DNA of 45,469 nucleotides from positions 1,868-47,336 of the forward strand of contig DJLG01000110.1 of assembly GCA_002434915.1 (NCBI GenBank), given 5' to 3'. Position 1 is the stretch's first letter. Each line of letters starts with the position of its first letter. A program made the translations under genes and the position numbers. Of the stretch, positions 5,500 through 29,916 are shown piece by piece. The notes below the pieces were generated by a model. That model searched no databases. It saw only the letters and a list, made by a program, of their open reading frames with translations, and was not told the origin of the DNA. Origin of the DNA: Proteobacteria bacterium UBA6522. Its GTDB lineage: Bacteria; Pseudomonadota; Gammaproteobacteria; Steroidobacterales; Rariloculaceae.

Positions 5500-5540
5500 A
5501 AATAGTAAGCCAGTCGTTTGGTTTATATTTTGGAGGTCAG

Positions 5541-5906: not shown

Positions 5907-5961
5907 TAATAGGCAAAGCAAATTGCGATGTAGGGGCCGCCATTACAGTCCCGGGAGAATT

Positions 5962-9012: not shown

Positions 9013-9015
9013 TGG

Positions 9016-9384
9016 TTACTTTCTAGATACTAACTCTGCTATTTCAAATTGGAATTCACCAGATACAATATGCATATCTGCGCCAACCGCACGCCACTTA
9101 ACTATATAAGTACCGGGTGGAATTGAAGGTGTAGAAATAGAAAATTCTTGTTGCGTGGTGGTTGGCATTGCACCAAGGTCAATAACTTTTCCATCGTTAT
9201 CTTCTACAGAAAAAGCAGTGAGCCTGACTTCTGTGGAAAAACCCAATGCGATATTTTCGGGAGCTATAGTTTCTATCGAGTTATCAGCTGGATTAGAGCT
9301 TGACAGTACCGTATGTGCTTGTGCAGGCAGCCCTAGTATTGCCAAAAAAACTGTTATAAATAGCGTCAATATACGTATTTTCAT
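9016..9384 (-). CDS. copC: Periplasmic copper-binding protein CopC
   Basis: The signal peptide ends AQA|HTVL, placing His at mature position 1. The CopC pattern is SSNPADNS...YIVKWRAVGADMHIVSGEFQFEI, with a D-x-H motif. Confidence 0.85.
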   Translation of the reverse strand: MKIRILTLFITVFLAILGLPAQAHTVLSSSNPADNSIETIAPENIALGFSTEVRLTAFSVEDNDGKVIDLGAMPTTTQQEFSISTPSIPPGTYIVKWRAVGADMHIVSGEFQFEIAELVSRK

Positions 9385-11652: not shown

Positions 11653-12036
11653 CTAGGTGATTCTATTTGGGTAAACGTCGTAGTTTTTTCCGCTATAGGT
11701 TACCCGCACAGTTTTAACCTCATAACTCTCAGGATTACTATTACGATTACCACGTATGGATACTTCAGCACCTACAGGTATAGTTTCTTCAGCAAGCCCG
11801 GAACGTCTAGTTCTTGATGGTGGACCCATAGTGATATCCCAGACTTGTCCACTTTCGTCTTCGATCTGCATATGTGCGTGTGGACCTGACATGCTGAGAG
11901 CCCGATGCAATGTTCCGGATAACTCGAATTGATCGTTAGTTTGTCCGCTCCAGCCGTGGTGTGCCGAGACCTGAGTTGCCACTAATCCAAGTGTTACGAA
12001 GATTGTAGCAATACTGACAGTTATTTTGTTAAGCAT
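11653..12036 (-). CDS. Small exported protein, 'S-type' paralog 2 (the most divergent copy)
   Basis: The ATG at 12036 follows AAGGA, whereas the track start at 12051 is a TTG with no SD. The signal peptide ends VSA|HH. The motif SGPHAHM replaces NPH. Confidence 0.7.
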   Translation of the reverse strand: MLNKITVSIATIFVTLGLVATQVSAHHGWSGQTNDQFELSGTLHRALSMSGPHAHMQIEDESGQVWDITMGPPSRTRRSGLAEETIPVGAEVSIRGNRNSNPESYEVKTVRVTYSGKNYDVYPNRIT

Positions 12037-12134
12037 AATCTGTTCCTTCAAACGGGATTTAGCGCCTCACCAGTAGGCCAACAATAGCATATCTCTAGTA
12101 TATAAGGCGTAGCTTCTTAACAATTTTTCGCCTC

Positions 12135-12665
12135 CTATTGAGGTATCACAGCGACGGCTTCCACTTCTAAAACAAATCTTGGGTCTGAAGCTACACGAAC
12201 AATCTCTATAGTTGTACTGGCTGGGTTATGGTTTGGTCCCCAATATCGATTCATCACCTCTCGAATCGTGTCTCCATTAGTGGCAACATCTTTAACAAAT
12301 TTTGTAACTTGAATTACATCTGTAATTTCTCCCCCAGCGGCTTCAACTGTTCTTTTTATTCTTTCCATTACTCTAACTGTTGCAGCTTCAGCACCAAAGT
12401 CTAGATGATCAAATTCAGTTGCATCATGAGGGTGGCTATGTGGGACTGGTGCACCACTTGTGCCTGAAAGAAACAAAATCTGACCTGATCCAACAGAAAT
12501 CGCTGAGGTAAACGGCATGTTTGCACCACTGCTAGGCTCAGTTCCCGGCAGGTGAATATACTCAAACTGTTGATCACCTGTGCTGCAGCCGCAAAGAATC
12601 AGTGTGATAAATATTAAGGCCCATATCCTTAACCTCTTATTTAATTGCACTAAAGACTGAATCAT
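12135..12665 (-). CDS. RidA/YjgF family lipoprotein
   Basis: There is a GGGGGA SD and a lipobox (LILCGCS). RidA-like core: ILFLSGTSG...VMERIKRTVEAAGGEITDVIQVTKFV...STTIEIV...LEVEAVAV. Confidence 0.75.
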   Translation of the reverse strand: MIQSLVQLNKRLRIWALIFITLILCGCSTGDQQFEYIHLPGTEPSSGANMPFTSAISVGSGQILFLSGTSGAPVPHSHPHDATEFDHLDFGAEAATVRVMERIKRTVEAAGGEITDVIQVTKFVKDVATNGDTIREVMNRYWGPNHNPASTTIEIVRVASDPRFVLEVEAVAVIPQ

Positions 12666-12737: not shown

Positions 12738-14018
12738 TCATTGGATTTCGGCAAGTTGTTGAAGCAGGGCACCCCTAGCGCTGTTAGCAGGCACGAATCG
12801 CTGCACTCTAAAAGAATCAACCTCCCCTGTGTAAATATTTCCTTGCGAGTCGACCGCTATCATGTGAAGACCAAAGAACTCACCTCCACCCTCACCCATG
12901 TGACCCAGTTCTCCAACAACCTCACCATTTTCTCGATTTAGAAACCAGATTTTGTTATTCATGCGATCAGAGATATAAAGAAAGCGTTGTTCAGGATCAG
13001 AGGAAAATGCTACGCCACCAGTTGAACCTCCTCCTCCGGTACTGGGCGCTAGTATAAATTCATCTAGGAATTCTCCTTGCTTCGTAGTTACATGAATTCG
13101 ATTAGCATTTCTGTCTGCGGCATAGACTAGCCCATCATTCGAGATATTTAATGTTAGGTGACCTGCAAAGTCCTTGGGCATTGGACCATTTGGTGTGTAC
13201 TCATGGTCCGCATCATCTATGCTGATCATCTCTAATGATTTTCCATAAGCCCCCCATCCTCTCTTGAATTCAAAACTATCAAGATCAAAAACTAATACAC
13301 GCCCACCTAAGTAGTTATCAGCTATGTATACCTCTCTGTCCGTCTCCACTATCCTAATTTCTTCAAGTCCACCAACAATTACTGGAGTGTCTGGGGGATA
13401 TTTTTCACGAAAAACTTTAGCAGCAGCTGTTCTGGCTGCTATTTCTATCGGATCATCTGGACTATTTGGCATAAAAACTGAGGCATGTTCGAGAGTCCCT
13501 TTGCCTGGGGTAAATTCGACTGGAGGAAGTAGACCTACAGGGCCACCATTTTCTCTTTCTGCTGTGCGTGCTATTTCGGCAATCACCATTCCTGTTTGAG
13601 GGTCATACTTGCGAACCGTATCCTGCCCAATGTAAACAAATCCATTCTCATCAACATCCATCCCGTGTCCCTGTGGAGCATTGAAAGAACCAATAACATT
13701 TCCGATCTGATCTAGATGAATCATTGAAGGGGGACGAATACAACATTGTGCAATTGGTGGTGAAACTTCATTTAGTAGTTCCATATCGGATAAGTCGTTT
13801 GGTCGATTGAGGACCCAGATATTATTGTTGGCGTCAATAGCAAGTCCGGTTATACCGCCTACTTTCCAATTATTTGGAAGTGTCTGGGGCCATGTTGGAT
13901 CAGCATAGTACTTTTGTGGTTCTTGCGTATGAGCTACAGTGCTAAGAAATAATAATATCGATATAACATTGGTGATAAGAGGGAATACGGCTATTAATAC
14001 CGGTTTATTTTTAGACAT
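12738..14018 (-). CDS. Exported NHL-repeat beta-propeller protein
   Basis: The ATG at 14018 follows GGGGGAG, and an N-terminal signal/anchor is present. NHL-like repeats include GLAIDANNNIWVLNR, HGMDVDENGFVYIG, NISNDGLVYAADRNANRIHV and HMIAVDSQGNIYTGEV..RVQRF. Confidence 0.75.
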   Translation of the reverse strand: MSKNKPVLIAVFPLITNVISILLFLSTVAHTQEPQKYYADPTWPQTLPNNWKVGGITGLAIDANNNIWVLNRPNDLSDMELLNEVSPPIAQCCIRPPSMIHLDQIGNVIGSFNAPQGHGMDVDENGFVYIGQDTVRKYDPQTGMVIAEIARTAERENGGPVGLLPPVEFTPGKGTLEHASVFMPNSPDDPIEIAARTAAAKVFREKYPPDTPVIVGGLEEIRIVETDREVYIADNYLGGRVLVFDLDSFEFKRGWGAYGKSLEMISIDDADHEYTPNGPMPKDFAGHLTLNISNDGLVYAADRNANRIHVTTKQGEFLDEFILAPSTGGGGSTGGVAFSSDPEQRFLYISDRMNNKIWFLNRENGEVVGELGHMGEGGGEFFGLHMIAVDSQGNIYTGEVDSFRVQRFVPANSARGALLQQLAEIQ

Positions 14019-14165
14019 AGTAATCTCCCCCTGAGTCAGATGTATTGTCAATGCTGATAATACTCTGCAATATGTTATATCAGCATAATAATTTTAATGT
14101 CTTCTGATAAGGAAGCTAATGCTTTATAGGGTTCGGTTTGAATAAGCCGTGATAAGGAGCTATGT

Positions 14166-15041
14166 ATGCAGGTTAGGGTCGTTATAGTTGCCATAACATG
14201 GGGTATTTTAAATATATCTCAGTCCGCATATGCGCAGGTTACACCAGAGGTCCAGTCTGTTCTCTATGAGGCGGCAGACACGCTAGGGTTACTTCGAACA
14301 CCTAGAGAAGTGGACCGTGTCATAACCATGATTTATTCAGGTTCAGGAACTAGGGTCATAGAGGGTGAAACTTGTGTCATGGATAGTTATCGAGCTAGTT
14401 TGCGCTATGCAATACCTGAAATTGTTCATCCTTTCCCGGTACCGGGTATGCGTGTTGATTTCACTTGTGTTGTTAGTGATGCCGAGCCACAGCGTTATGT
14501 GCAAGTTGTGGCAGGAGGATATGCTTGGGATGAAGATGAGCCAGGCGGCAACTCAGAGTCTATGCCTGAGACATTGCGTGAAAGATTGTTACAGATATGG
14601 CTTGTTCCACAGGGCCTAGTAAAGGCTGCTGTTGAAGCTGGGGAATTAGCTACCGCATCTTCTAATAGCGATGGAAATCCTGTGCTTACTTTTCCCTTGC
14701 CTGCTCCATTAGATGACACGATTGTGCAAGCCACATTTGACCCAGAAGTGTTTCTTTATCATACGATGCCAAACGGTACTAGGCGTGAATTTGGTCACCG
14801 GCTTGTACATGTTGAAACCGAGTTTGACGGTACCTTAGTAGAGGTGGCGTATGCTGACTACCAGGATTGGAATGAGTCTGACTATAAGGCAGATGTTTTG
14901 TTGCCGGGCCATATTATACAAACGGTTGATGGGGCTACGGTTATGGATTTAAATCTAAGTCTGAGCAACACATATAACCCTTATGTGGTTATGCCGTTGC
15001 CGGCAAACATTGCTGCGGCAGGAACTGCATTCTCAGAGTAA
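14166..15041 (+). CDS. Exported hypothetical protein (291 aa), first gene of an operon with the S3 and L2 paralogs
   Basis: It has an AAGGAG SD and a signal peptide ending SAYA|Q. I recognise no family. Confidence 0.6.
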   Translation: MQVRVVIVAITWGILNISQSAYAQVTPEVQSVLYEAADTLGLLRTPREVDRVITMIYSGSGTRVIEGETCVMDSYRASLRYAIPEIVHPFPVPGMRVDFTCVVSDAEPQRYVQVVAGGYAWDEDEPGGNSESMPETLRERLLQIWLVPQGLVKAAVEAGELATASSNSDGNPVLTFPLPAPLDDTIVQATFDPEVFLYHTMPNGTRREFGHRLVHVETEFDGTLVEVAYADYQDWNESDYKADVLLPGHIIQTVDGATVMDLNLSLSNTYNPYVVMPLPANIAAAGTAFSE

Positions 15042-15104: not shown

Positions 15105-15515
15105 ATGCATCATAAATTTCGCTTAGTTGGTTTGGTGGGTGCTATGTTGGGTTTTCTTTTAGCGGCAACTCCAATAACTGCGCATCATGCAATCCAGGCT
15201 CAGTTTGATCAGGATAGGCTTGCTACTATCACTGGTGTGATGAGACGTGTGATGTGGATAAACCCACATGTGCGTTGGTTTTTAGATGTTGAGGATGAAA
15301 ATGGTGATGTAACCTCCTGGAATATCTCTGGGTCAGGACCTGGCGCGTTTCGTCGTGTAGGTATAAGTGGCCGCGATGTGTTCGTAACAGGAGAGACCTA
15401 CACTGCTACGATCGCTTTAGCAAAGGATGGGTCAGATTTTGGGTATATTGTCTCATTTATTCTTCCCGATGGCAGGAAGATTGATTTATGGCATCAATAC
15501 CAGTCCGAGGGTTAA
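15105..15515 (+). CDS. Small exported protein, 'S-type' paralog 3
   Basis: The signal peptide ends ITA|HH, followed by AIQAQFD, WINPH and DVEDENGDVTSWNISG. Confidence 0.75.
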   Translation: MHHKFRLVGLVGAMLGFLLAATPITAHHAIQAQFDQDRLATITGVMRRVMWINPHVRWFLDVEDENGDVTSWNISGSGPGAFRRVGISGRDVFVTGETYTATIALAKDGSDFGYIVSFILPDGRKIDLWHQYQSEG

Positions 15516-15580: not shown

Positions 15581-16552
15581 ATGAAAAATAGAACTATAAC
15601 CATGTCTTTTTTGCGTTACAGCTTAATGATCTTTAGTGCACTTGGTGTTACCACTTCTTTTGTAGCTTGTACATCTGGCCAAGATTCTGCCTCCTCCTCT
15701 GATATTGCTGTAAGTGACCAAGAACAAATGTCTGAAGTTGATGCTTCATCGACGCCCCGAACTGCCAATGGCAGGCCTGATTTAAATGGCCGATGGGGTA
15801 GTAGTGGTGGTGGAGGTAGTGTTATGGCAATTGAGCCTGACGGTACTGAATACAACTTTGATACATTTGCTGATTATCAGGCAGCTGTTAGTGAAGGTAG
15901 TGTGAGCCTTTCGGCTAGTATTATTGGGCGTAGACCTAACTATCGACATGGTAATAATGTTTATGGTGAGCGAGATGATGGGATGACTAGACGTTATTTC
16001 GCAAATCCACCTCTCTATAAAGGGGAGTTCTGGAATCGAATTGAATACTTGGATATCAATGGAAATATGGAGGATATGACTTTTATCTGTATGCCAGCTG
16101 GCGTACCGCGCATGGGACCACCAATTCGCATCTTACAGTCTGAATCAGATGTCGTTTTTCTTTATCAGCAACGTAATACTTGGCGTGTTATACCAACTGA
16201 TGGGCGTGATCATGATCCGTTGAATTCTCAAGACCAAACCTTCATGGGGGATTCTGTCGGACGTTGGGAAGGAGATACCCTTATTGTTGATGTTGTAGGC
16301 TTCAATGACCTTACTTGGCTTGGGTGGCCTGGTTGGTATCATACTAATGAAATGCGTGTTGAGGAACGCTTTACTCGTTTAGATGACACGCTTCTTTATG
16401 AGGTTACGGTGCATGATCCTGAAGTTTTAATTGAGCCATGGGAAATGGATCCGCGAGTTTTGAATCTAAACCCCAGTACAGCTACATACCTTGAGGACCC
16501 GCCTTGCTTAGATTTTGATTCTGCACATATGGTGACGAGGGAGCGTGGTTAA
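15581..16552 (+). CDS. Exported lipoprotein of unknown function, 'L-type' paralog 2
   Basis: There is a lipobox (FVACTS). Family motifs are GRPDLNGRWG, FICMPAGVPRM, GRWEGDTLIVDVVGFND, HDPEVLIEPW and PPCLDF. Confidence 0.7.
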   Translation: MKNRTITMSFLRYSLMIFSALGVTTSFVACTSGQDSASSSDIAVSDQEQMSEVDASSTPRTANGRPDLNGRWGSSGGGGSVMAIEPDGTEYNFDTFADYQAAVSEGSVSLSASIIGRRPNYRHGNNVYGERDDGMTRRYFANPPLYKGEFWNRIEYLDINGNMEDMTFICMPAGVPRMGPPIRILQSESDVVFLYQQRNTWRVIPTDGRDHDPLNSQDQTFMGDSVGRWEGDTLIVDVVGFNDLTWLGWPGWYHTNEMRVEERFTRLDDTLLYEVTVHDPEVLIEPWEMDPRVLNLNPSTATYLEDPPCLDFDSAHMVTRERG

Positions 16553-16594: not shown

Positions 16595-18163
16595 TTAGTC
16601 GGGTATAGAAGATTCTCGATAATTTTTGATTTCTCCAGTGGTTAATCTGTGATTATAGTCTTTGAGTTTTTTCTTTAAGGTTGGAGCCAATATGTATAGA
16701 CCAAGGATGTTTGGTATGCATATAAAAAAGACTAAAGCATCTGAAAAATCAAGAACAGCACTCAACTGAATCGAGCAGCCAATCATGACAAATAAGCAGA
16801 AAACTGTTTTGAACCCTAAGTCTGCAGTTTGAGATTTGCCGACAAGATACGTCCATCCTTTGAGCCCATAATATGACCAGGCAACCATAGTTGAAAACGC
16901 AAATAAGATTCCAGAAATAGCAATTACGTATGGTGACCAACTAATATTTCGTTCGAAGGCTGCAGAAGTCATTTCTATTCCGCCAAGTCCTTGTACAAAA
17001 TTTGGATCGTAATAGAGAGTGGTTGTTATAACCAAAGCAGTGATAGTGCATATCACAACTGTATCTATAAATGGTTCCAATAAAGCAACATAGCCCTCTG
17101 TTATGGGTTCGGTTGTTCTTACGGCTGAGTGTGCTATTGCCGCAGAACCTATGCCTGCTTCATTTGAAAAGACGGCGCGCTGAAAGCCAACAATCATTAC
17201 ACCTAAAGCACTACCCGATAGCGCTTCTGGTGAGAATGCGCCATTGAAGATAGCTAGAAATGCAAATGGAAGAGCCTCATAGTTCATGGTTATTATTGTG
17301 AGGGCAGATAAGACATATAAAATCGCCATAAATGGAACAAGTTTTTCAGTAACACGCGCAATGCTTTTTATTCCGCCAATAATTACTATGCCAACAGCTA
17401 AGGCAATAATGAGACCAAAAAGCCAGCCCTTGTCATGAAACCAACTACCATTTGTTCCGCCTGTTACATTTACGAACTGCACATAGGCTTGGTTTGACTG
17501 GAACATGTTTCCAATTCCTAGGCAGCTGATAACAATTCCAATGGCATAAAATTTAGCCATGAAGCTACCAAGTCGTTTTAGCCCTCTCTCTTTTAATCCT
17601 CTTTCTAGGTAATACATTGGGCCACCAGAAACACTACCATCTGAGTGTTCTCTTCGGTAAATTGTTCCTAACGCGCATTCCACAAACTTTGTGGACATGC
17701 CAAGTAATCCCGCTAAGATCATCCAAAAAGTAGCACCAGGACCGCCTATTGATATAGCTACCGCTACGCCACCAATATTACCGACTCCAACCGTACCTGA
17801 GACAGCGGTAGCAAGAGCCTGAAAATGTGAAACTTCGCCTGGATGAGAGGGATTTGAATAATCTCCGCGCACTACCCTGATGGAATGTTTAAAGCCTCTA
17901 ACATTTATAAAGTTGAAATAGCCCGTAAAAAAGATAGCACCAATAATTAACCAAAGCACAACCAAAGGTAGTTGTGTGCCAAGTACAGGTATAGTGAAAA
18001 AAATAAGTTTCGATACAAGTGCAGTAAGTGGTTGAATAGTATTATTAATAATTGAGTCAATTCCCGAAGAGTCTTGAGCAATTGCAGGTTTAAAAAAAAT
18101 AAGGCAAGCAGAAAAAGCAATAAGCTTCTTTATGAGTAATTTAATTGCAAGCATGGTTTTCAA
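16595..18163 (-). CDS. Alanine/glycine:cation symporter (AGCS family)
   Basis: The 522-aa polytopic protein carries the typical AGCS segments GGPGATFWMILAGLLGMSTKFVECALG and GGPMYYLERG. Confidence 0.9.
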   Translation of the reverse strand: MKTMLAIKLLIKKLIAFSACLIFFKPAIAQDSSGIDSIINNTIQPLTALVSKLIFFTIPVLGTQLPLVVLWLIIGAIFFTGYFNFINVRGFKHSIRVVRGDYSNPSHPGEVSHFQALATAVSGTVGVGNIGGVAVAISIGGPGATFWMILAGLLGMSTKFVECALGTIYRREHSDGSVSGGPMYYLERGLKERGLKRLGSFMAKFYAIGIVISCLGIGNMFQSNQAYVQFVNVTGGTNGSWFHDKGWLFGLIIALAVGIVIIGGIKSIARVTEKLVPFMAILYVLSALTIITMNYEALPFAFLAIFNGAFSPEALSGSALGVMIVGFQRAVFSNEAGIGSAAIAHSAVRTTEPITEGYVALLEPFIDTVVICTITALVITTTLYYDPNFVQGLGGIEMTSAAFERNISWSPYVIAISGILFAFSTMVAWSYYGLKGWTYLVGKSQTADLGFKTVFCLFVMIGCSIQLSAVLDFSDALVFFICIPNILGLYILAPTLKKKLKDYNHRLTTGEIKNYRESSIPD

Positions 18164-18358
18164 GCCTTGAATTGAGCATATGTAACATTTTTTGGTATAT
18201 CACTCTGACAGTAAAGGCAGGTGTTATAGCATGATGGAAAACGGAATAATGGTTAATTTTTATTGAAAAAGTTAGCTTTAACTGTATGAGTATAAAGAAA
18301 TAGTAATCCACTTTAATCTGTGGATAGGCTAACTTAATAAAAAAGGTGGAGTATAAAG

Positions 18359-19429
18359 TTGCAAGTACTACTAGGTAATAAGGCTAAGAGAGCAGTTTGG
18401 TCAAGCATTATATTGTTTTTCTTTTTGCCAATAAGTCTTCAGGCTCATCACTCTAGAGCAGAATTTTCTGGAGGGGATTTTCGAGAAATTGAGGGAGAAG
18501 TTGTTCGTGTGTCATGGAGAAACCCTCATGTTACTTTCAATATTAGAACAGTTTCATCAGATGGTTCTGAAGAAATGTGGGAGCTTGAGGCTGGGGATGT
18601 TGCAACTCTAGCTAGGCGTGGTTTGGACAACGGTTACATTAATGTAGGTGATATGATTACAGTGGCGGGACCAATATCGACCCGGCGCGATAACTTTTTG
18701 GCTATTGCCCATGCTTTATTAAGTAATGGTGTTGAGATGATTTTTGGAAACCGTGAACCACGATGGTCGGATCAATATATGGGTGGTGGAAGTGCCACAG
18801 TTTCTGCAAGCGAAGAGATAGAAGCTGATCTAGAAGATATTTTCCGGGTTTGGATTCGAATGGGCCCGACCCCTTACGAGGTAATTGAGCAGCCACCGCT
18901 CACTTCTGAGGCAAGGGCTATTTGGCAGAATTATGATTTTTTCCATGATGATCCTGTACTTAATTGCAATTTGCCTGGTATGCCGCGTGTCATAACTATG
19001 GCTGGTTCTCGGCCTATAGAATTTGAAAAGCATGGCAACGATATCTTGTTGCATTCAGAAAACTTTAACCTGACTAGGGTTATTCATATGGAAGAAGATG
19101 AATTGGATGGCGACATAGAATCCACACCATTAGGATATTCTCGGGGGCACTGGAATGGAGATACTTTAATTATTACTACCACGCATATTAGTTGGCCATT
19201 ATTTGAGTTGCCCCCCTTGTATGGTATTCCTCAAAGCGAGGAAATGAAGATTATTGAGCAATTTACCCTTATAGATAATGAGTTAGTGTATGACTTTTGG
19301 GCAAATGATCCTGTGAATTTCACTCAGCCCATAGAAGAGCAGAGATACTTCGTTTGGCGGTGGGATCCGGAAGTGGAAATTAGAGCTCATGAGTGCGAGA
19401 TTACTTTAAGACCAGGTTCTGAGGAGTGA
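18359..19429 (+). CDS. Natural fusion of an S-type domain (N-terminal) and an L-type domain (C-terminal)
   Basis: The TTG start follows GGTGGAG. The signal peptide ends LQA|HH, followed by WRNPH (S motifs). Next come DPVLNCNLPGMPRV, GHWNGDTLIITT, NDPVNFTQP and AHECE (L motifs). Confidence 0.75.
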   Translation: MQVLLGNKAKRAVWSSIILFFFLPISLQAHHSRAEFSGGDFREIEGEVVRVSWRNPHVTFNIRTVSSDGSEEMWELEAGDVATLARRGLDNGYINVGDMITVAGPISTRRDNFLAIAHALLSNGVEMIFGNREPRWSDQYMGGGSATVSASEEIEADLEDIFRVWIRMGPTPYEVIEQPPLTSEARAIWQNYDFFHDDPVLNCNLPGMPRVITMAGSRPIEFEKHGNDILLHSENFNLTRVIHMEEDELDGDIESTPLGYSRGHWNGDTLIITTTHISWPLFELPPLYGIPQSEEMKIIEQFTLIDNELVYDFWANDPVNFTQPIEEQRYFVWRWDPEVEIRAHECEITLRPGSEE

Positions 19430-19521: not shown

Positions 19522-20667
19522 ATGATATTCAGAACGGCATTCATAGGATTTATATTTCTCTTCATTGGAAAAGTAGCCTTTGCGCAGGAAGGTAATCCTC
19601 TTGATTCTATAGAGATAAGGGTTAATGAAGAGATGGTAGCTGTTGCTTCAGCAATTCTAGAAAGCACAAGAACTGGAACGGTTCAGCAAGGAGATGATTT
19701 TTTTAATTCTTTTCTTGGAACCAATGGCGTTACTAACAACGTGGAAAATATGGTTGGATACTCTAGAGAGAATCTACTTTCTTTATCGATAATGGATGAG
19801 GCTAGATTGGACTGGAGTTACTGGCCAAGGCCAAGGGTAGGGTTAACCTTAGGGGAAATGACAAGTTCTCAGCGTACGATGGTCCATGACTTATTAAATA
19901 CAGCTTTAACTTCTATGGGTTATCTAAAAGTAATCCATATTATGCAGTTAGAGGAGGTTTTGAATGTTCAGGAAAATATCGGTTTACCTCGTGGTAATGA
20001 GCAATACTGGCTAACATTTTTTGGAACTCCCTCAATGGAGGAACATTGGGGCTGGCGTTTTGAGGGACATCATGTATCACTTAATATATGGGTGTCTCCC
20101 GCTGGTGGTATTCGTGTAACACCAACCTTTTTTGGTGCTGATCCTGCAGAAATACGTGGGGGAGCCCTAGCTGGGTTTCGTCCTCATTCCGTTGTAGAAG
20201 ATCTGGGTAGAGACTTGATTTTGTCACTCAGTGAGGAAGACCGTGAAGTAGCTATTCTTTCCGATAATGCCCCTATGGAGATTCTTGCTACTCCAATTTT
20301 TAAGGCTCGAGATGATTGGGAGACCTGGCGCCAGACACTTCAGCCAGAAGGTGTTTCTGTAGCAGACCTCAGTGGTACTCAGAGACATATAGTGCAAAGA
20401 ATTCTTAATGAGGTGGTTACTGCCTATCGTCCTGAGATTTCTGCTGCTTATCTAAAAACAATACAAATTGATGAGTTAAGCTTTGCTTGGATGGGCAGTA
20501 GGGAAAGAGGTGGTCCACATTATTATCGACTACAAGGCACAGACTTTGTTTTTGAATATGACAACGTACAAGGTGGTGCTAATCATGTTCATACTGTTTG
20601 GAGAAGCAAAAGAGGTGATTTTGGAGGTGATTTACTTCCAGAACATTACAGGATGTCGCATCGTTAG
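19522..20667 (+). CDS. Exported DUF3500-like protein
   Basis: There is a GGAGAG SD and a signal peptide. The motif FFGTPS...WGWRFEGHHVSLN is as I remember for DUF3500. The assignment was not verified. Confidence 0.6.
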   Translation: MIFRTAFIGFIFLFIGKVAFAQEGNPLDSIEIRVNEEMVAVASAILESTRTGTVQQGDDFFNSFLGTNGVTNNVENMVGYSRENLLSLSIMDEARLDWSYWPRPRVGLTLGEMTSSQRTMVHDLLNTALTSMGYLKVIHIMQLEEVLNVQENIGLPRGNEQYWLTFFGTPSMEEHWGWRFEGHHVSLNIWVSPAGGIRVTPTFFGADPAEIRGGALAGFRPHSVVEDLGRDLILSLSEEDREVAILSDNAPMEILATPIFKARDDWETWRQTLQPEGVSVADLSGTQRHIVQRILNEVVTAYRPEISAAYLKTIQIDELSFAWMGSRERGGPHYYRLQGTDFVFEYDNVQGGANHVHTVWRSKRGDFGGDLLPEHYRMSHR

Positions 20668-20749: not shown

Positions 20750-22795
20750 ATGGATACATTTATGCGAAGTGTAGGTAGTTTTTTTAGCCTATTAGCCATT
20801 ATGTTTTTTATGACTTATGGCAGTGAAGCCGCCATAGTTAATATTGAAATCATAAAAGTAGAGTCGCCGACCTTTGATGGTAGAAGTTTTGGTTCTGTAG
20901 GGCAGTATGAAAAATTACACGGACGGGCTTATGGAGAGGTAGACCCGGAGGATCCACATAACTCCATTATTACTGATATTGATCTTGCCCCAAGAAACTC
21001 TAACGGCAAGGTTGAATACTCAATGGACATATTTATATTAAAGCCTATTGATATGAACCGCAGTAATCATAAGCTTTTCCTGGATATGAATAATCGTGGA
21101 GAGATGCGTGTCGGCAGGCTTAATGGGGTGTCTGTTAGTAATGATCCTACCAGTGCAGAAGATGGTGGTAATGGTTTCATTATGGACCAGGGGTTCACGA
21201 TAGTTGGAAACGGTTGGGATTTTGGGGCTACCAGGGACAACATGGGTCTTACAATATCGGTTCCGATTGCCTTGAACTCAGATGGCTCAGATATTACCGG
21301 CCCTTCTTACGAATACATTACTTTTAATAACCCAGAAACTTACAGTTATACCTTAACTTATCCGGCAGAAAATTTAAGTAAAGAAGGAGCAATGCTCACT
21401 GTTCGTGAACGTCTTGATGATAGGCCTATAGTTGTCCCTTTAGCGGGCTGGGACTTTGCTGATGAACAGACAATTCGCTTACTTCCTATTGGTACTGCTT
21501 TTGATCAGGCGCATATATATGAATTTACCTATATCGCTAAAAATCCAGTCGTGTCAGGATTAGGACTTGCAGCGACTCGTGATTTTATATCCTTTCTTCG
21601 CTACGCTCCCAAGAGTGGAGCAAGAGTTGATAATCCGTTAGCAGATGCCATAAGACAAACCTACAGTTTTTCAATTTCACAACCATCTCGCGCTTTGCAT
21701 GATTTCCAAACCCTTGGGTTTAATGCTGACGAAGAGGATAGACGGGTTATTGATGGGATGCTTAAGTGGACTGGGGCAGGGACTGGAGACCAAATAAACT
21801 ATCGTTTTGCCCAGACTGGTAGGACTGAGAGGAATAGACAAAATCATCTTTATCCAGAAGGTGTGTTTCCGTTTGCACATCAGGTTCTAACGGATCATCT
21901 AAGTGGAAAGGTTGCGGGGCGATCCACCTTATGTGCAGAAAGTAATACTTGCGCCAAGATATTTGAGGTTAATTCATCTAATGAGTATTGGGTTAAGACA
22001 GGATCCCTTTTGCACAGCGATACCCGTGGACAAGACATAGAGGATCCAGACGATGTTCGTTTTTTTCTCATATCAGGGACATCTCATGGGGTAGGTAACG
22101 TTGCTAGTCGAGGGCTCTGCCAACAATTTCTCAATCCCATAAGCCCCTATCCAGCACTTCGTGGACTATTTGTGGCCTTAGATAGGTGGGTAGCCGATAA
22201 GGTTGAGCCACCATCCAGTCGGGTTCCTCGGCAGATTGAGGGAACTGCTGTAATGGCACAGTCAATATCAGGTAGCCAAACAGGCAGCGTACCCCAAGAG
22301 GTTTTAGGTTGGCCAAATATTCCAGGTGTGAATTACACTGGCCTAATAACAACTCGGCACTATTTAGATTTTGGGCCGCTATTTGATTCAGATTCCCTTA
22401 TTTCTAACTATCCTCCTTCTATTGATAATAGACCTGCTTATGACATCTTTGTTTCACGAGTTGATGAGGATGGAAATGAGATCGCTGGGATTCGTTTGCC
22501 CCCTGTGGAAACTCCAATAGCAACCACTACAGGTTGGGCACTTCGACGAGATGGCTTTGGTTTGGGTGATGGTTGTGAGGGTTCTGGTCAATATATTCCA
22601 TTTGCGGTAACAGAGGATGAACGGCTCTCTATTGGTGATCCTCGCCTCTCATTAGAGGAACGTTATGGCACACATGAAAACTATGTACAGGAAGTAGCAA
22701 GTGTGGCTGAAGAGTTAATGCACCAGGGATTTTTGCTTGAGGCGGATGTGCAAAGATATATTGATCAGGCAGCAAGTAGTGATGTTTTGCAGTAG
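20750..22795 (+). CDS. Exported 681-aa protein, possibly of the uncharacterised 'alpha/beta hydrolase domain' family
   Basis: A signal peptide is present. The N-terminal pattern FGSVGQYEKLHGRAYGEVDP...ITDIDLAPRNSNGKVEY...LDMNNRG resembles that family from memory. The call is weak. Confidence 0.5.
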   Translation: MDTFMRSVGSFFSLLAIMFFMTYGSEAAIVNIEIIKVESPTFDGRSFGSVGQYEKLHGRAYGEVDPEDPHNSIITDIDLAPRNSNGKVEYSMDIFILKPIDMNRSNHKLFLDMNNRGEMRVGRLNGVSVSNDPTSAEDGGNGFIMDQGFTIVGNGWDFGATRDNMGLTISVPIALNSDGSDITGPSYEYITFNNPETYSYTLTYPAENLSKEGAMLTVRERLDDRPIVVPLAGWDFADEQTIRLLPIGTAFDQAHIYEFTYIAKNPVVSGLGLAATRDFISFLRYAPKSGARVDNPLADAIRQTYSFSISQPSRALHDFQTLGFNADEEDRRVIDGMLKWTGAGTGDQINYRFAQTGRTERNRQNHLYPEGVFPFAHQVLTDHLSGKVAGRSTLCAESNTCAKIFEVNSSNEYWVKTGSLLHSDTRGQDIEDPDDVRFFLISGTSHGVGNVASRGLCQQFLNPISPYPALRGLFVALDRWVADKVEPPSSRVPRQIEGTAVMAQSISGSQTGSVPQEVLGWPNIPGVNYTGLITTRHYLDFGPLFDSDSLISNYPPSIDNRPAYDIFVSRVDEDGNEIAGIRLPPVETPIATTTGWALRRDGFGLGDGCEGSGQYIPFAVTEDERLSIGDPRLSLEERYGTHENYVQEVASVAEELMHQGFLLEADVQRYIDQAASSDVLQ

Positions 22796-26265: not shown

Positions 26266-27312
26266 ATGCCACAAACAGGGAGTAGGGCCTTCGAGCTCGC
26301 AGAGCAAGGACTTTTACCCGATATGGTTATTCGGTTAGGGATACGTCGACTATTGAAAGCAAGGCTGATTGAGATAGGAGAGCAAGACTGCGAAAGTATG
26401 ATCTTTGATCAGCAACGCTTCATAGAGATGATGAATGCTAGTGAAATTGCGCCAGTACCTCATTTGGCCAATGAGCAGCATTATGAAGTGCCAGCTGAGT
26501 TTTTTAAATTAGTCCTTGGAGGACGTTTGAAATATAGCTGTGGATATTGGCCTAAAGATGAGATGACATTGGAAGAAGCGGAATCTGCCGCACTGAAGGT
26601 AACAGCGGAGCGAGCACTTTTAAAAAATGGCCAGACAATTTTAGATCTTGGTTGTGGTTGGGGTTCTTTTAGCTTGTGGGCAGCAGAGAATTATCCGGAC
26701 AGTTCCATTACTGCGGTATCTAATTCCAGTGCTCAGCGGGTTGCAATTGAGGCTGAGATAGAACGACGTAATCTCAAAAATTTAACTGTTCTTACACAGG
26801 ATATGAATGAGTTTGAACCAGTGACTAAGTTTGATCGAATTCTCTCAATAGAAATGTTTGAGCATATGAGAAATTACAGATTATTTTTTAATCGTATTTC
26901 TAAATGGTTAAATCCTGAAGGACGATTTTTTATGCATATCTTTTGTCATCGATCTACTGCATATGAGTTTGTTGATAGTGGTCCAAGTGACTGGATGACT
27001 AGACACTTTTTTTCAGGAGGGATAATGCCAAGCGATGATTTGCCCCTTAGGTTTCAAGAGGACCTTACTTTATGTGGAAAGTGGCGTTGGGATGGTAATC
27101 ATTATAAAAAAACAGCAAATGCTTGGTTGCAAAATATGGACTCTCAGCAAAGTGAAGTTATGCCTGTCATGTGTTCAACATATGGTGAAAAATTGTCAAG
27201 CAAGTGGTGGATGCGTTGGAGAATATTTTTTATGGCTTGCTCTGAATTGTTCGGTTATGAAAAGGGGCAGCAATGGTGGGTAGGCCACTATTTATTTAAA
27301 CGCGCTAATTGA
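26266..27312 (+). CDS. Cyclopropane-fatty-acyl-phospholipid-synthase-family SAM methyltransferase (paralog 1)
   Basis: It has the SAM motif ILDLGCGWGSF and a CMAS-like N-terminus (HYEVPAEFFKLVLGGRLKYSCGYW). Confidence 0.85.
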   Translation: MPQTGSRAFELAEQGLLPDMVIRLGIRRLLKARLIEIGEQDCESMIFDQQRFIEMMNASEIAPVPHLANEQHYEVPAEFFKLVLGGRLKYSCGYWPKDEMTLEEAESAALKVTAERALLKNGQTILDLGCGWGSFSLWAAENYPDSSITAVSNSSAQRVAIEAEIERRNLKNLTVLTQDMNEFEPVTKFDRILSIEMFEHMRNYRLFFNRISKWLNPEGRFFMHIFCHRSTAYEFVDSGPSDWMTRHFFSGGIMPSDDLPLRFQEDLTLCGKWRWDGNHYKKTANAWLQNMDSQQSEVMPVMCSTYGEKLSSKWWMRWRIFFMACSELFGYEKGQQWWVGHYLFKRAN

Positions 27313-27357
27313 TGCTGATTACTGCTACGACTAATAGGCAAAAAATATATTTTTCAA

Positions 27358-27900
27358 ATGCGTTTTTATCTTAATCTTGTTGCTTTTCAGATAGGTTGGT
27401 TTGCATGTGTTTTTGGTGCGGCACATTCCATTCCTGTATTAGGGCCTATGGTGGTATTAGTAGTGATTGCGTTGCATTTGTTTTTATCAAAAAGGCCATA
27501 TAGAGAGTTAAGTCTCATAGGTATAGCAGGATTAATAGGTCTTTCATGGGATAGTTTTCTTGTAATAGCCGGTCTTGTAGCCTATCCGTCAGGTATGATT
27601 ATTGATAGTTTGGCTCCGTATTGGATAATCGCAATGTGGATGCTATTTGCTACTACACTTAATGTTTGTCTGCGATGGTTAAGAAAAAAGTACTTACTGA
27701 GTCTAGTTCTTGGTGCATTTATGGGCCCATTAACCTATTATTCTGGCGCAAAAATTGGAGGAATAAGTCTTTTAAATCAGATGGATAGCTTAATTTCGAT
27801 AGGGCTAGGATGGGCAGTGATATTACCCCTGCTAAGTGAGCTTTCTAGAAGATTAGATGGTTCCGGTATTCCTGAGGGCTTTAATCACCCCAATGTTTGA
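27358..27900 (+). CDS. DUF2878-like small membrane protein
   Basis: The N-terminus (LVAFQIGWFACVFGAA), about 5 TM segments, and its position in the conserved CFA/DUF1365 cluster support the call. Confidence 0.6.
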   Translation: MRFYLNLVAFQIGWFACVFGAAHSIPVLGPMVVLVVIALHLFLSKRPYRELSLIGIAGLIGLSWDSFLVIAGLVAYPSGMIIDSLAPYWIIAMWMLFATTLNVCLRWLRKKYLLSLVLGAFMGPLTYYSGAKIGGISLLNQMDSLISIGLGWAVILPLLSELSRRLDGSGIPEGFNHPNV

Positions 27901-28663
27901 TTCTTACCTTTTGGCATTAGCAATTGTGATGAGCTTTGCCGTATTGGCATGGGGTGTGAGCCTACGGTTACGAGATGTCAGTATTGTAGATAGCATTTGG
28001 TCGTTAATGATAGCGGCCACATCAATAGCTTATTTTGCTCTAACCCCTCAAGTAGAGCCTAGAGGTTATATCGTTTTATTTCTTGTATGGATTTGGGGTA
28101 TTCGTTTATCTGTTTACCTCACCTGGAGAAACTGGGGCCTAGAGGAGGATTCCCGCTATAAAGAAATTCGAAAGAATAATGAGCCTAACTTTGAGGTAAA
28201 GAGTCTCTATATTATTTTTGGTTTACAGGCTTTTGCAGCATCAATTGTTTCTTTATCACTACTTGCTGGAATTGCTAGTCGGTCAGCGCTCGGATGGCTT
28301 GATTTGTTAGGACTCTTACTATGGGTTATTGGTTTTCTTTTTGAAAGTATTAGTGATCATCAACTCAGTCAGTTTCAATCTGATACAAACAATAAAAATC
28401 AGGTTCTTGATAAAGGGTTATGGAAGTACACTCGTCATCCAAACTACTTTGGAGATTTTTGTATTTGGTGGGGATTTTATTTGTTTGCTCTAAGCGCAGA
28501 AAGTTGGTGGGCTATTATTTCTCCATTACTTATGAGCTTTTTATTGTTAAGATTTTCTGGAGTAGCTGTTCTTGAAAAAACTATCAAGGCGCGTCGTCCC
28601 GCATATGTAGAGTATGTGAATTCTACAAATACATTTTTCCCTGGTCCTAGAAAAAAACCATAA
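27893..28663 (+). CDS. DUF1295 membrane protein (steroid 5-alpha-reductase/ICMT-like fold)
   Basis: It contains LWKYTRHPNYFGDFCIWWGFYL. The ATG at 27893 overlaps the previous stop by 8 nt. Confidence 0.75.
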   Translation: MFDSYLLALAIVMSFAVLAWGVSLRLRDVSIVDSIWSLMIAATSIAYFALTPQVEPRGYIVLFLVWIWGIRLSVYLTWRNWGLEEDSRYKEIRKNNEPNFEVKSLYIIFGLQAFAASIVSLSLLAGIASRSALGWLDLLGLLLWVIGFLFESISDHQLSQFQSDTNNKNQVLDKGLWKYTRHPNYFGDFCIWWGFYLFALSAESWWAIISPLLMSFLLLRFSGVAVLEKTIKARRPAYVEYVNSTNTFFPGPRKKP

Positions 28664-28670
28664 ACTTGAT

Positions 28671-29912
28671 ATGAAAATTGCAATAATCGGAGCTGGAGTT
28701 TCCGGTAATACTGTTGCCTATCGACTGCATGAAAAGCATGACATAACAATATTTGAGGCTGAAGATTATATTGGTGGGCATGTAAATACTATTGATGTAG
28801 TTGAAGATGAGTCTGTAATCTCAGTTGATACTGGTTTTATCGTTTTTAACGATCGTACTTATCCCCAATTTACTTCGATTCTTAAAGACCTGGCCGTACC
28901 TTCTCAGGCGAGTGAGATGAGTTTTAGTGTGAGTTGTGAAAGTTCAGGGCTTGAATATAACGGCGCTAATTTTAATAAACTTTTTTGCCAGAGAAGTAAT
29001 TTTTTTCGATGGTCCTTTTATCAGATGATTTATGACATATTACGTTTTAATCATTTTGCGCCACGCGATTTAGTAGATGCAGATGCTAGTACGTTGCTCT
29101 GTGATTATTTAGATAAAAACGATTACTCTCCGCAATTCATAAACCAATATCTATTGCCGATGTGTGCTGCTATATGGTCTGCGGATCCTATGGCCATTGA
29201 GAAAGCTCCACTAATTTTTCTAGTTCGTTTTATGGAAAATCATGGCTTGTTAAGTATTAATAACCGTCCCCAATGGGGAGTAATAAAAGGAGGGTCAAAA
29301 AACTATATTAATCAAATGGCTAGTGCATATTCTTCTAAGATTAGATTGTCTACTCATGTCCAATGGGTTAAGCGATATCCAGGTTTTATAGAGATAAAAG
29401 CATCTGGAAGTGAGGTGCAACGGTTTGATGAGGTATTTTTAGCCTGTCACAGTGATCAAGCTTTACAACTATTAGCTGACCCTTCTCCTCTTGAAAAAGA
29501 GATTTTAGGAGCTATTAATTATCAATCTAATGAAGCGATTCTTCATACAGATGATTTGATTTTGCCAAGACGTAAATTAGCATGGGCAGCTTGGAACTAT
29601 TACATTCCAAAAGAACATGATGGTTCTGCATCTGTTACATACAATATGAATATTCTTCAAGGTTTAAAGTCTAAAAACATCTATTGTGTGACACTGAATG
29701 ATTCTGAAAGAATTCGACCGGATAAGATTATCAAAAGAATTATTTACCATCATCCAGTATTTACACAGGCAAGCATGGCAGCCCAGAAACGTCATAAAGA
29801 GATAAGCGGGGTTAATAGAACCTATTACTGTGGGGCTTATTGGGGAAATGGTTTTCATGAGGATGGTGTTGTAAGTGCTCTATCTGCCATAGAAGGTTTC
29901 GAGGAAAAATAA
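28671..29912 (+). CDS. FAD-dependent oxidoreductase (amine-oxidase/phytoene-desaturase-like)
   Basis: It has the N-terminal dinucleotide motif KIAIIGAGVSGN and the C-terminal pattern YYCGAYWGNGFHEDGV. Confidence 0.85.
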   Translation: MKIAIIGAGVSGNTVAYRLHEKHDITIFEAEDYIGGHVNTIDVVEDESVISVDTGFIVFNDRTYPQFTSILKDLAVPSQASEMSFSVSCESSGLEYNGANFNKLFCQRSNFFRWSFYQMIYDILRFNHFAPRDLVDADASTLLCDYLDKNDYSPQFINQYLLPMCAAIWSADPMAIEKAPLIFLVRFMENHGLLSINNRPQWGVIKGGSKNYINQMASAYSSKIRLSTHVQWVKRYPGFIEIKASGSEVQRFDEVFLACHSDQALQLLADPSPLEKEILGAINYQSNEAILHTDDLILPRRKLAWAAWNYYIPKEHDGSASVTYNMNILQGLKSKNIYCVTLNDSERIRPDKIIKRIIYHHPVFTQASMAAQKRHKEISGVNRTYYCGAYWGNGFHEDGVVSALSAIEGFEEK

Positions 29913-29916
29913 GGGC

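Follow-up and report, generated by a model that had tools for sequence, protein, structure and literature searches.

A single gene encodes an S and an L domain

The window, i.e. the whole stretch of 45,469 nucleotides analyzed here, belongs to contig DJLG01000110.1 of Proteobacteria bacterium UBA6522. On its plus strand, the ORF 18359..19429 encodes a protein of 356 residues without internal stop. Translation starts at a TTG codon, and a Shine-Dalgarno sequence, AAGGTGGAG (18343..18351, plus strand), is found 7 nt upstream. An earlier note on this DNA had described the product as a fusion of two protein families, S and L; all the motifs that it quoted are present in this uninterrupted frame. 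Along the plus strand, the gene encodes a Sec signal peptide with a hydrophobic core (residues 1-29, 18359..18445) ending at a predicted signal-peptidase I cleavage site, LQA|HH, and then the S domain (residues 30-140, 18446..18778), a Pfam DUF6152 domain with a predicted OB-fold and invariant residues H30-H31 (18446..18451), P56-H57 (18524..18529) and W74 (18578..18580). A variable linker (residues 141-159, 18779..18835) leads to the L domain (residues 160-348, 18836..19402), which belongs to an uncurated family, is predicted to form a FABP/calycin-like barrel and contains C203 (18965..18967) and C346 (19394..19396). A short C-terminal tail and the stop codon complete the ORF (19403..19429).

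The S domain ends around W136 and the L domain begins around residue 160, at a conserved IFRVW strand. The linker, previously estimated at about 50 residues, is in fact about 19 residues long: it is modeled with low confidence (pLDDT 56-68) and is 26% identical to that of a 68%-identical ortholog, the two domains reaching 74% and 76%. The earlier note had also proposed to predict the structure of the fusion, and the resulting model displays two domains with a pLDDT of 87.4 and a pTM of 0.81; in the model of the precursor, residues 27-31 have a pLDDT below 50. Around the gene, a scan for promoters and terminators gave counts no higher than the shuffled expectation. It revealed no plus-strand terminator-like site between the fusion gene and the two genes downstream.

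The fusion is genuine and widespread

One could wonder whether an assembly chimera or a frameshift joined two neighboring genes, an explanation in favor of which we found no point. The same protein, identical, is encoded on 7 contigs from at least three independent assemblies, and each of these contigs differs from the window by 4 nucleotides, all synonymous. Homologues of the fusion form 221 clusters, the best 120 of which cover about 81-100% of the query (most of them at least 89%) at identities ranging from 99 to 35%. More than 120 clusters share the architecture, and at least 552 S-L fusion loci are found in species-representative genomes, some genomes containing at least six copies. Identical proteins in at least three assemblies, with synonymous changes only, together with the conserved homologue clusters thus exclude an artefact at the S-L junction, and we consider a chimera or a frameshift next to impossible. 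Trees of the S domain and of the L domain agree with each other: in both, the same 15 of 109 fusions fall outside the main clade. In the fusions seen, S precedes L. Some of the homologues are named 'DUF6152 family protein' at NCBI. Altogether, these data establish that the fusion is ancient, widespread and under purifying selection, and that ORF 18359..19429 represents the natural version, in one chain, of an exported module made of two parts, S and L.

Separate S, L and X genes in the window

In a phmmer search of the window, four free S ORFs matched the N-terminal part of the fusion and three free L ORFs matched its C-terminal part (E 7.7e-21 to 7e-10 for L), the 45 kb containing five domains of each family in total. 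As previously noticed, S and L are also encoded here by separate adjacent genes, which form three S/L pairs. On the plus strand, an L gene whose product contains an additional N-terminal domain with an FVGEW motif (4477..5499, L domain at residues 147-316) is followed by a free S gene (5541..5906); the latter is listed as an ORF from 5415, and its likely start is the ATG at 5541 (MMRFYF..., signal ending AVG|HH). Further along the same strand lies an X-S-L trio, composed of a gene for an exported protein of 291 residues, X (14166..15041), of S3, a free DUF6152 protein according to Pfam and phmmer (15105..15515), and of L2 (15581..16552), which displays a possible lipoprotein signal and an N-terminal extension with a PDL-x-G-x-W motif and a Gly-rich stretch. 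On the minus strand, a tandem L-L protein of 514 residues (43874..45418, L domains at about 44723..45202 and 43994..44380) is encoded upstream of a free S (43475..43867), itself upstream of TauD and MFS genes. A divergent orphan S (VSA|HH ... GPH ... W; 11653..12051, minus strand) lies downstream of NHL and RidA genes.

The earlier note credited the fusion with a full L domain. This is true of the L core; the N-terminal extension of free L2-type proteins (G-x-PDL-x-G-x-W plus Gly-rich stretch) is absent.

The S family

Residues 28-104 of the fusion match DUF6152 (PF19649) with 56.6 bits (E 2.7e-15), the gathering cut-off of this model being 27 bits, and BLASTP aligns the fusion with S3 at 23% identity over 115 residues (E 2e-7). 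The homology of the N-terminal part to free S proteins, on which the idea of a fusion depended, is therefore verified. A single free S query retrieves 1,634 DUF6152-type clusters. H30, H31, P56, H57 and W74 do not vary among 71 fusions, nor in a mixed set of 62 free and fused S sequences, and the H-H, P-H and W elements are kept in the divergent orphan S. In 240 fusion and free S sequences, the median distance between the start and the HH pair is 24 residues, and the residue before the pair is A, G or S in about 97% of them. The sequences thus predict that mature S begins with His-His once the signal peptide has been cleaved. No conserved Met is found among the invariant or near-invariant columns.

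The model of S3 (pLDDT 86.8) contains a helix (79-84) between two strands (69-75 and 98-106). With Foldseek it matches the SSB protein Rim1 (TMt 0.72, rmsd 3.2 A, E 4e-4) and further OB-fold proteins, namely PriB, IF1 and the N-domain of LysRS. From this model we infer that S adopts an OB-fold, bearing in mind that the Foldseek matches of the S and L models are weak (E about 1e-3 to 1e-4, identity about 10-15%). The S domain did not match the Pfam families of CusF, CopC, LPMO, DUF1775 or PCuAC, and sequence and profile searches of solved structures with the fusion, S, L and X gave no significant match. In the literature library that was searched, we found no paper on DUF6152, nothing combining a histidine brace with an OB-fold, and only two incidental mentions of Rariloculaceae.

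The L family and a third partner

The fusion aligns with L2 at 28% identity over 151 residues (BLASTP, E 3e-11), which confirms that its C-terminal part is homologous to free L. In 49 free and fused sequences, C203, G207, R240, W265, L270, E300, D317 and C346 are invariant; as a pattern, this set reads C...G-x-P, R, W, E, D...C. The two cysteines probably form a disulfide. In the model of the fusion, the L domain comprises a strand (164-168), helices (183-213) and ten strands (220-335). It resembles FABP/CRBP with a TMt of 0.5-0.6, at an E value of only about 1e-3 to 2e-3 and an rmsd of 6-8 A (Foldseek). The order of these elements fits a disulfide-stapled barrel of the FABP/calycin type with a helical lid, which the model suggests. 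No Pfam family, including lipocalin, FABP and ZinT, matched L up to E=10, and no NCBIfam model covers it. This uncurated family amounts to about 17,000 clusters at a 50% identity level.

Long L proteins were searched for additional Pfam domains; none was present, and the search led instead to a fusion between X and L. X thus represents a third unannotated family, which had gone unnoticed in the earlier note and is present in many free systems, where it is either fused to L or adjoins S-L. The X-L fusion is a second and independent one, with S directly downstream. X did not match Pfam up to E=10. Remote homology of X to S or to L, or between S and L, was rejected with hhalign (probability below 1%).

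S and L as partners

The main claim drawn from the fusion was that S and L act together. We examined 80 loci picked on an L match alone (L2-subfamily alignment): of the 110 L genes that lack an S domain, 85 are accompanied on the same strand by a free S at no more than 400 bp, and another 9 are cut by the ends of the loci. This adjacency occurs in both gene orders and across phyla. Adjacent free S and L proteins also co-diverge, with a Mantel r of 0.76, whereas none of 999 permutations exceeded 0.20, and their nearest neighbors agree in 41 of 79 pairs. In genomes, the two families occur as if obligately paired. Adjacency, co-divergence, the congruent trees of the fused domains and the X-L fusion all bear out the claim.

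The two domains probably also touch each other: given the pTM of the two-domain model, we infer that they are in physical contact and packed on each other. An alternative would be that S and L are merely co-expressed, the fusion representing operon compaction without any direct physical or mechanistic coupling, as a flexible and unconserved linker might suggest. Yet such a whole-chain pTM is hard to reach with independently placed domains, since the larger domain accounts for only 53% of the chain, and adjacency in both orders across phyla, strong co-divergence and an independent X-L fusion speak against it too. We thus regard mere co-expression as highly improbable. On the other hand, the proposal that the fusion fixes the stoichiometry and orientation of S and L holds within this subfamily only. 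The arrangements S-S-L, L-S-S and LL-S were also found, and the existence of S-S-L and LL-S implies that the S:L stoichiometry is not fixed in general.

Genomic context

Most genes next to the fusions encode exported hydrolases and transporters of small molecules. A search for a single conserved partner gene was unsuccessful for this class, the 148 nearest neighbors comprising 136 Pfam families and the largest sequence cluster having 8 members. Next to free modules, the 134 flanking genes include DUF6644 proteins (10), TonB-receptor-like barrels (8) and CytoC_RC cytochromes (6); counted per locus, these are found at 14, 20 and 18 of 80 loci, respectively. All three accompany a minority of the free modules and essentially none of the fusions. 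TonB-dependent receptors adjoin free S/L genes on a Croceibacterium plasmid (S-S-L-TBDR), on a Sphingobium plasmid and at loci L084-86 and L089/90; they represent 2 of the 148 neighbors of fusions and are absent near the five modules of the window. Genes for MFS, TRAP and Na:Ala transporters lie beside modules of the window. Among the neighbors of fusions and of free modules, no enrichment of copper genes was observed. The possibility that DUF6644 is a CopD-like copper importer was discarded (hhalign probability 1.5%).

The module ranges from marine Gammaproteobacteria to sphingomonads and soil Acidobacteriota. In the cultured genera Croceibacterium, Sphingobium and Novosphingobium, it adjoins TonB-dependent receptors and sulfonate-utilization genes. 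Other sulfur genes around the modules are TauD (twice), a rhodanese, Xsc/Pta at an ortholog locus, sulfatases, arylsulfotransferases and an ssu-like island in Sphingobium. Together, they are at most suggestive of an organosulfur theme.

Possible function of the S/L module

We propose, tentatively and with slightly less than even confidence, that S and L form a periplasmic module combining a metal center and a ligand pocket, which binds and probably transforms small organic molecules. Cleavage by signal peptidase would expose His30 as the first residue. Its amine and imidazole groups, with His31 and/or His57 from the W-x-N-P-H turn, could then form a center resembling a histidine brace, for which copper would be the likeliest metal. 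The L barrel would use R240, E300, D317 and W265 to position a small organic ligand at this center, so that the pair would bind, and probably chemically transform (for example oxidize), small periplasmic substrates, the extensive paralogy of S and L diversifying ligand specificity. In free systems, scaffolding, electrons or substrate entry could be supplied by X and, in subsets, by c-type cytochromes, DUF6644 and TonB-receptor-like proteins; a covalent S-L link may render X dispensable. An N-terminal His and a second His are the defining ligand set of histidine braces, as in LPMO, CopC, PmoF-PCuAC and the mono-His YcnI (PMC8424229). We found no sequence link between S or L and any copper protein or lipocalin family. 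The existence of the putative metal site in S appears evenly balanced to us, and its being a redox-active copper site is doubtful.

A bolder version of this proposal is that S/L, together with X, constitutes a very large uncharacterized class of periplasmic metalloproteins and a new family of copper-dependent oxidative enzymes, in which an OB-fold histidine-brace copper center would be set on a calycin pocket. Substrates would be small organics such as aromatics, sulfonates or esters, and c-type cytochromes and DUF6644 membrane proteins would act as electron donors in unfused systems. To our knowledge, the OB-fold is not known as a histidine-brace scaffold, and we judge this version unlikely.

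The invariant residues of L and S are just as compatible with a non-catalytic binding protein. The module could capture a ligand and hand it off, passing its cargo to inner-membrane transporters. The ligand of L would be a small molecule, perhaps a metal chelate or an amphipathic organic compound, entering via a TonB-dependent receptor; the His cluster of S would bind its metal or polar head, and the cytochromes and DUF6644 would release the metal by reduction. The receptors adjoining several free modules, the transporters flanking those of the window, the FABP/CRBP carriers being the closest structural matches of L, and a heavy paralogy typical of binding-protein families are all consistent with this hypothesis. 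However, TonB-dependent receptors are missing from the surroundings of most modules, including all five of the window, and of nearly all fusions, and the His, Arg, Glu and Asp residues invariant across paralogues of about 20% identity suggest a shared chemistry beyond diversified binding, an argument qualified by the fact that conserved anchor residues occur in binding proteins too. We hold such a hand-off role to be possible, on the less probable side.

Finally, S might be a dedicated periplasmic Cu/Zn chaperone or homeostasis protein, like CopC, YcnI, CusF or ZinT, and L its accessory domain. The N-terminal His-His layout is as in CopC and YcnI, CusF provides a periplasmic OB-fold precedent (though outside the top 50 fold matches), and a CopC-CopD pair, whose CopC has the layout AQA|H, is encoded in the window at 8149..9384. 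The latter lies about 2 kb from the nearest S gene with other genes in between, and this proximity may be a coincidence. Homeostasis is nevertheless difficult to square with at least ten paralogues in one genome and with five modules within 45 kb. In addition, the neighbors are catabolic enzymes and transporters of organic substrates instead of metal genes, no Pfam match to CusF, CopC, DUF1775 or ZinT was obtained, and DUF6644 is not CopD-like. A chaperone role is therefore improbable in our opinion, and the module combining a metal center with a ligand pocket remains the reading that we favor.

Comparison with known systems

By tying DUF6152 to L, the fusion turns three sets of hypothetical proteins, X included, into one recurrent exported system that can be tested. 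The invariant His-His at the mature N-terminus provides a concrete metal-binding hypothesis, and cultured hosts of the module (Croceibacterium, Sphingobium, Novosphingobium) make genetics feasible. With respect to Pfam, the S domain of the fusion is a bona fide DUF6152 member; the DUF6152 model spans only this part of about 100 residues, the L domain of 190 residues lying outside any Pfam or NCBIfam model.

A parallel can be drawn between S and histidine-brace proteins: both are exported small all-beta domains, with a predicted cleavage right before an invariant His and a second invariant His. On the other hand, S shows no sequence kinship with them, possesses an adjacent HH pair and would adopt an OB-fold in place of their Ig-like or cupredoxin-like sandwich. 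If the metal center is real, histidine-brace chemistry would extend to a new fold.

CusF is a periplasmic OB-fold metallochaperone for Cu(I)/Ag(I). Like S, it is a small periplasmic OB-fold barrel, a possible metal-binding scaffold. It differs from S in that S matches neither the CusF Pfam family nor, among its top 50 fold matches, CusF itself; the Met/His/Trp site that binds Cu(I) in CusF has no counterpart in S, whose sequences lack a conserved Met.

As for L, its model weakly resembles FABP/CRBP barrels, with a strand, a putative helical lid and ten strands, and free L proteins display an N-terminal G-x-W motif, which is typical of calycins. On the other hand, identity to the FABP/CRBP matches is about 10%, L gave no lipocalin or ZinT Pfam match at E=10, and it has its own invariant Cys pair and R/E/D/W set. 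A natural fusion between a metal-binding protein and a ZinT-like calycin exists in AdcA.

Like classical Rosetta-stone fusions, S and L are encoded by adjacent separate genes in some genomes or loci and by one polypeptide in others. The present case differs in that fused and unfused paralogues share the same genome, and even the same window, and in that a third family, X, also fuses to L.

A single S-L polypeptide

The open reading frame at 18359..19429 (+) was described in the earlier note as joining an S domain and an L domain in a single polypeptide, and this is confirmed: the 356-aa product has no internal stop, and its TTG start lies 7 nt downstream of a strong Shine-Dalgarno sequence, AAGGTGGAG. 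Residues 28-104 of the fusion match Pfam DUF6152 (PF19649; 56.6 bits, E 2.7e-15), as do the free S ORFs of the window. In BLASTP, the fusion aligns with the free S protein S3 (15105..15515 +; 23% identity over 115 aa, E 2e-7) and with the free L protein L2 (15581..16552 +; 28% identity over 151 aa, E 3e-11), so that the homology of its N-terminal part to free S holds.

An assembly or frameshift artefact could be ruled out, since at least three independent assemblies contain the identical 356-aa protein, on 7 contigs in all and with unchanged neighbours, and each contig differs from the window in the fusion gene by 4 nucleotides, all synonymous. A database search returned 221 homologue clusters. 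The best 120 of these 221 cover about 81-100% of the query (most at least 89%) at 99% to 35% identity, are mostly 335-385 aa long and nearly all carry PF19649 at the N-terminus. In species-representative genomes we counted at least 552 fusion loci, often with several paralogues per genome and tandem arrays.

Comparison with an ortholog of 68% identity (hereafter the 68% ortholog) gives 24% identity in the signal peptide, 74% in S (residues 30-140), 26% in the linker (141-159) and 76% in L (160-348), about half of the identical residues being encoded by different codons. These segment identities reduce the linker, previously put at about 50 aa, to about 19 aa, and the fusion is a pair of constrained domains with a free linker between them.

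S and L as partners

Separate adjacent S and L genes are indeed present elsewhere in the window. Searching it by phmmer with the N-terminal part of the fusion matched four free S ORFs (listed as 5415..5906 +, 11653..12051 -, 15105..15515 + and 43475..43867 -), and the C-terminal part matched three free L ORFs (4477..5499 +, 15581..16552 + and 43874..45418 -, the last a 514-aa L-L protein with two L domains). They form three pairs, ordered L then S (4477/5541 +), S then L (15105/15581 +) and LL then S (45418/43867 -), plus an orphan S at 11653..12051. The S ORF listed at 5415 probably starts at ATG 5541, and hence would not overlap the L gene 4477..5499. In the latter, some 120 aa make up an additional N-terminal domain; after its signal peptide, the protein begins SSEFVGEWLL, a FABP/lipocalin-like F-x-G-x-W start. 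On the minus strand, L-L 43874..45418, S 43475..43867, a TauD-family dioxygenase (42499..43359) and an MFS transporter (41210..42502) form a tight run, with gaps of 6 and 115 bp and then a 4-bp overlap; it looks like an operon in which an S/L module is linked with genes for a 2-oxoglutarate dioxygenase and for an importer.

The fusion had been read, by Rosetta-stone logic, as evidence of a functional link between S and L, and observations independent of it uphold this reading. In 80 loci chosen only for an L match, mostly from Acidobacteriota and Gammaproteobacteria, 85 of the 110 L genes without an S domain are accompanied, on the same strand and at no more than 400 bp, by a free S; 9 others are cut by locus ends, and several of the remaining 16 lie in tandem L arrays with S at one end. 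Adjacent free S and L also co-diverge (Mantel r 0.76, where the highest of 999 permutations gave 0.20), and for 41 of 79 pairs the nearest neighbours are in agreement. Neighbour-joining trees of the S and of the L domains of 109 fusions agree with each other: both group 94 fusions, that of the window included, in one clade, and the same 15 fall outside it in both. This congruence points to an old fusion inherited as one unit. Altogether, S and L are shown to be the two obligately paired parts of an exported module.

The claim that the fusion fixes stoichiometry and orientation stands only in part. S-then-L is the only fusion order seen, but free genes occur in both orders (S>L 68, L>S 8 in the 80 L-selected loci) and S-S-L, L-S-S and LL-S arrangements exist, so the ratio is not universally 1:1.

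A third component, X

Directly upstream of the free S3-L2 pair lies X (14166..15041 +), an exported protein of 291 aa for which Pfam, NCBIfam and the PDB gave no match. The order X-S-L is found in the window and its orthologs. In five long L proteins (P0361, P0441, P0474, P0479 and P0405), the N-terminal 250-300 aa or so are homologous to X, with 39% identity (E 2e-60) for the 599-aa P0361. Of the 80 L-selected loci, 45 contain X, as X-S-L, S-L-X or an X-L fusion, and directly downstream of 8 of the 10 X-L fusion genes lies a free S. Conserved X residues include W121, E123, R140, K153, Y232 and a C-terminal NPY...P-x-P motif, with no conserved His or Cys. A common ancestry of X, S and L was rejected, the three being mutually unrelated (hhalign probability <1%). 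In the 80 fusion loci X is practically missing, with a single weak match. On this basis, one could hypothesize that covalent linkage of S and L might remove the need for X, as it could if X were a scaffold.

Predicted structure and a putative metal site

The AlphaFold2 model of the fusion, built on an alignment of 71 homologues, has a pLDDT of 87.4 and a pTM of 0.81, low confidence being limited to the signal-peptide end (residues 27-31, including H30 and H31 in this model of the precursor), the linker and the tail. As the larger domain makes up only 53% of the chain, this pTM would, in our reading, require a confidently predicted arrangement of S and L. Foldseek matches of the fused S domain are weak; a separate model of free S3 (pLDDT 86.8) gives canonical OB-fold matches, including PriB, IF1, the LysRS N-domain and the Rim1 SSB (TMt 0.72, rmsd 3.2 A, E 4e-4). 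The model of the L domain weakly matches FABP/CRBP/SAHS barrels (TMt 0.5-0.6, E about 2e-3, about 10% identity), and its order of one strand, a helical lid and ten strands agrees with that fold. For L, Pfam gives no match even at E=10, and neither NCBIfam nor the PDB holds a sequence relative; yet a profile search among 1.84 billion representatives retrieved 16,944 proteins with E<=1e-3, of which 10,331 reach E<=1e-10, the best 150 matches comprising 112 free L, 24 S-L and 14 L-L proteins.

Free and fused forms have in common the invariant residues H30, H31, G46, P56, H57 and W74 in S, and C203, G207, R240, W265, L270, E300, D317 and C346 in L, where C203 and C346 probably form a periplasmic disulfide. 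Among 240 sequences, the HH pair lies at a median of 24 residues from the start and directly follows A, G or S in about 97%; mature S-bearing proteins should thus begin with His-His.

The hallmark of histidine-brace copper sites (LPMOs, CopC, PmoF-PCuAC, YcnI) is a His at residue 1 after signal cleavage together with a further His (PMC8424229), and the CopC of the window itself has this AQA/H layout, with a mature N-terminal His. S has the same elements, an invariant His predicted as residue 1 and further invariant His residues. Because of this likeness we propose that signal cleavage would make the invariant His residue 1 of a metal centre on S, a proposal to which we give even chances. The metal would most likely be copper; that it is redox-active is a possibility we advance only tentatively, at less than even odds. 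The centre would lie against a pocket for small ligands in the predicted L barrel, and diversification of paralogues would tune ligand specificity. The CopC-CopD pair (8149..9012 - and 9016..9384 -) lies between two S/L modules and adjoins no S or L gene; copper genes are not enriched near S/L in the other loci.

Genomic neighbourhoods

Neighbours of fusions are heterogeneous, with 136 Pfam families among the 148 nearest genes. Those that recur most are NHL/SGL propellers (8 loci), metallo-beta-lactamase folds (two clusters, 6 and 4 loci), sulfatases and Abhydrolase_3 esterases (5 loci each), arylsulfotransferases (4) and RidA (3). The window repeats this set with one gene each for NHL and Abhydrolase_3 and two for RidA. 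A simple metal-chaperone role for the module seems very improbable to us, as it fits poorly both with such catabolic neighbours and with the massive paralogy.

Almost all genes flanking the S/L modules of the window carry export signals. An exported NHL/SGL beta-propeller (12738..14051 -), a Tat-signal Abhydrolase_3 esterase (6550..7545 -) and two exported RidA-like proteins (12135..12665 - and 7566..8075 -, one with a lipoprotein-type signal) adjoin S/L genes, and their families are also those found most often beside S-L fusions in other genomes. Downstream of the fusion lie DUF3500 (19522..20667 +) and Abhydrolase_10 (20750..22795 +), both with signal peptides, and no plus-strand terminator-like site was found between the fusion and these two genes. 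In the 68% ortholog, the fusion is likewise followed by DUF3500 and then Abhydrolase_10, and TauD again lies on the opposite strand. A cluster unrelated to the fusion (26266..31976 +; CMAS-like methyltransferase, DUF2878, DUF1295, amine oxidase, DUF1365 and a second CMAS-like gene) is also syntenic there.

The 68% ortholog locus (L081..L083) has an Xsc-like TPP enzyme and a phosphate acetyltransferase between a Na:Ala symporter and the fusion, neither of which is present at 16595..18358 of the window. These two enzymes, taken with a rhodanese (within ORF 5875..6540) and two TauD genes, hint at organosulfonate metabolism around S/L modules. A molybdenum hydroxylase of the xanthine-dehydrogenase/CO-dehydrogenase type (small, large and FAD subunits, 72..3675 +), followed at 3679..4364 (+) by a 116-aa ORF without assigned family and an exported BON-domain protein, directly precedes, on the same strand, the run L(4477)-S(5541)-rhodanese.

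Free modules differ from the fusion class in having a clearer neighbourhood. Their 134 flanking genes include 10 DUF6644, 8 TonB-receptor-like barrels, 6 CytoC_RC-like cytochromes and 4 tannase-like DUF6351; by crude heuristics, ORFs with at least two CxxCH occur in 18 of 80 loci and ORFs of at least 800 aa in 20 of 80. DUF6644 (about 160 aa, four predicted TM helices, invariant H33, K103, W144, G151 and R152) surrounds free S-L(-X) in pairs or arrays of up to six (L091 6056..7175, L092 8183..9201, L093 4089..5064, and 14 of the 80 loci L097-L176), and is absent from the window and from fusion loci. Its kinship to CopD was not detectable (hhalign probability 1.5%). On plasmids of cultured sphingomonads, S-S-L stands next to a TonB-dependent receptor (Croceibacterium), L-S with two DUF6644 (Novosphingobium humi), and a 282-aa protein precedes S-L-S in Sphingobium, with two DUF6644, a TonB-dependent receptor, SsuA-like, TauD, luciferase-like monooxygenases and a peroxiredoxin. 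The main rival to a metal centre on S is non-catalytic capture and hand-off of a ligand in TonB-receptor- or transporter-dependent uptake, a possible reading to which we give minor weight.

Relation to known families

That the ORF is a fusion is solid but would not surprise a specialist, since multi-domain DUF proteins are common. What is new is that DUF6152, a family mentioned by no paper in the literature searched, is tied to L, an uncurated family of very large size; that a third partner, X, exists and is itself found fused to L; that the three genes make up a module in permuted orders; and that His-His marks the N-terminus. The S/L/X system is an uncharacterised and testable one. We see the module as probably of the kind of exported metal-site or ligand-pocket accessory proteins, and consider a genuinely new class of copper enzyme unlikely. 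By the Pfam criterion the fusion is a DUF6152 member, and some homologues are already so labelled by NCBI. It has no sequence membership in the histidine-brace, CusF, lipocalin or ZinT families, and resembles them in layout or fold only.
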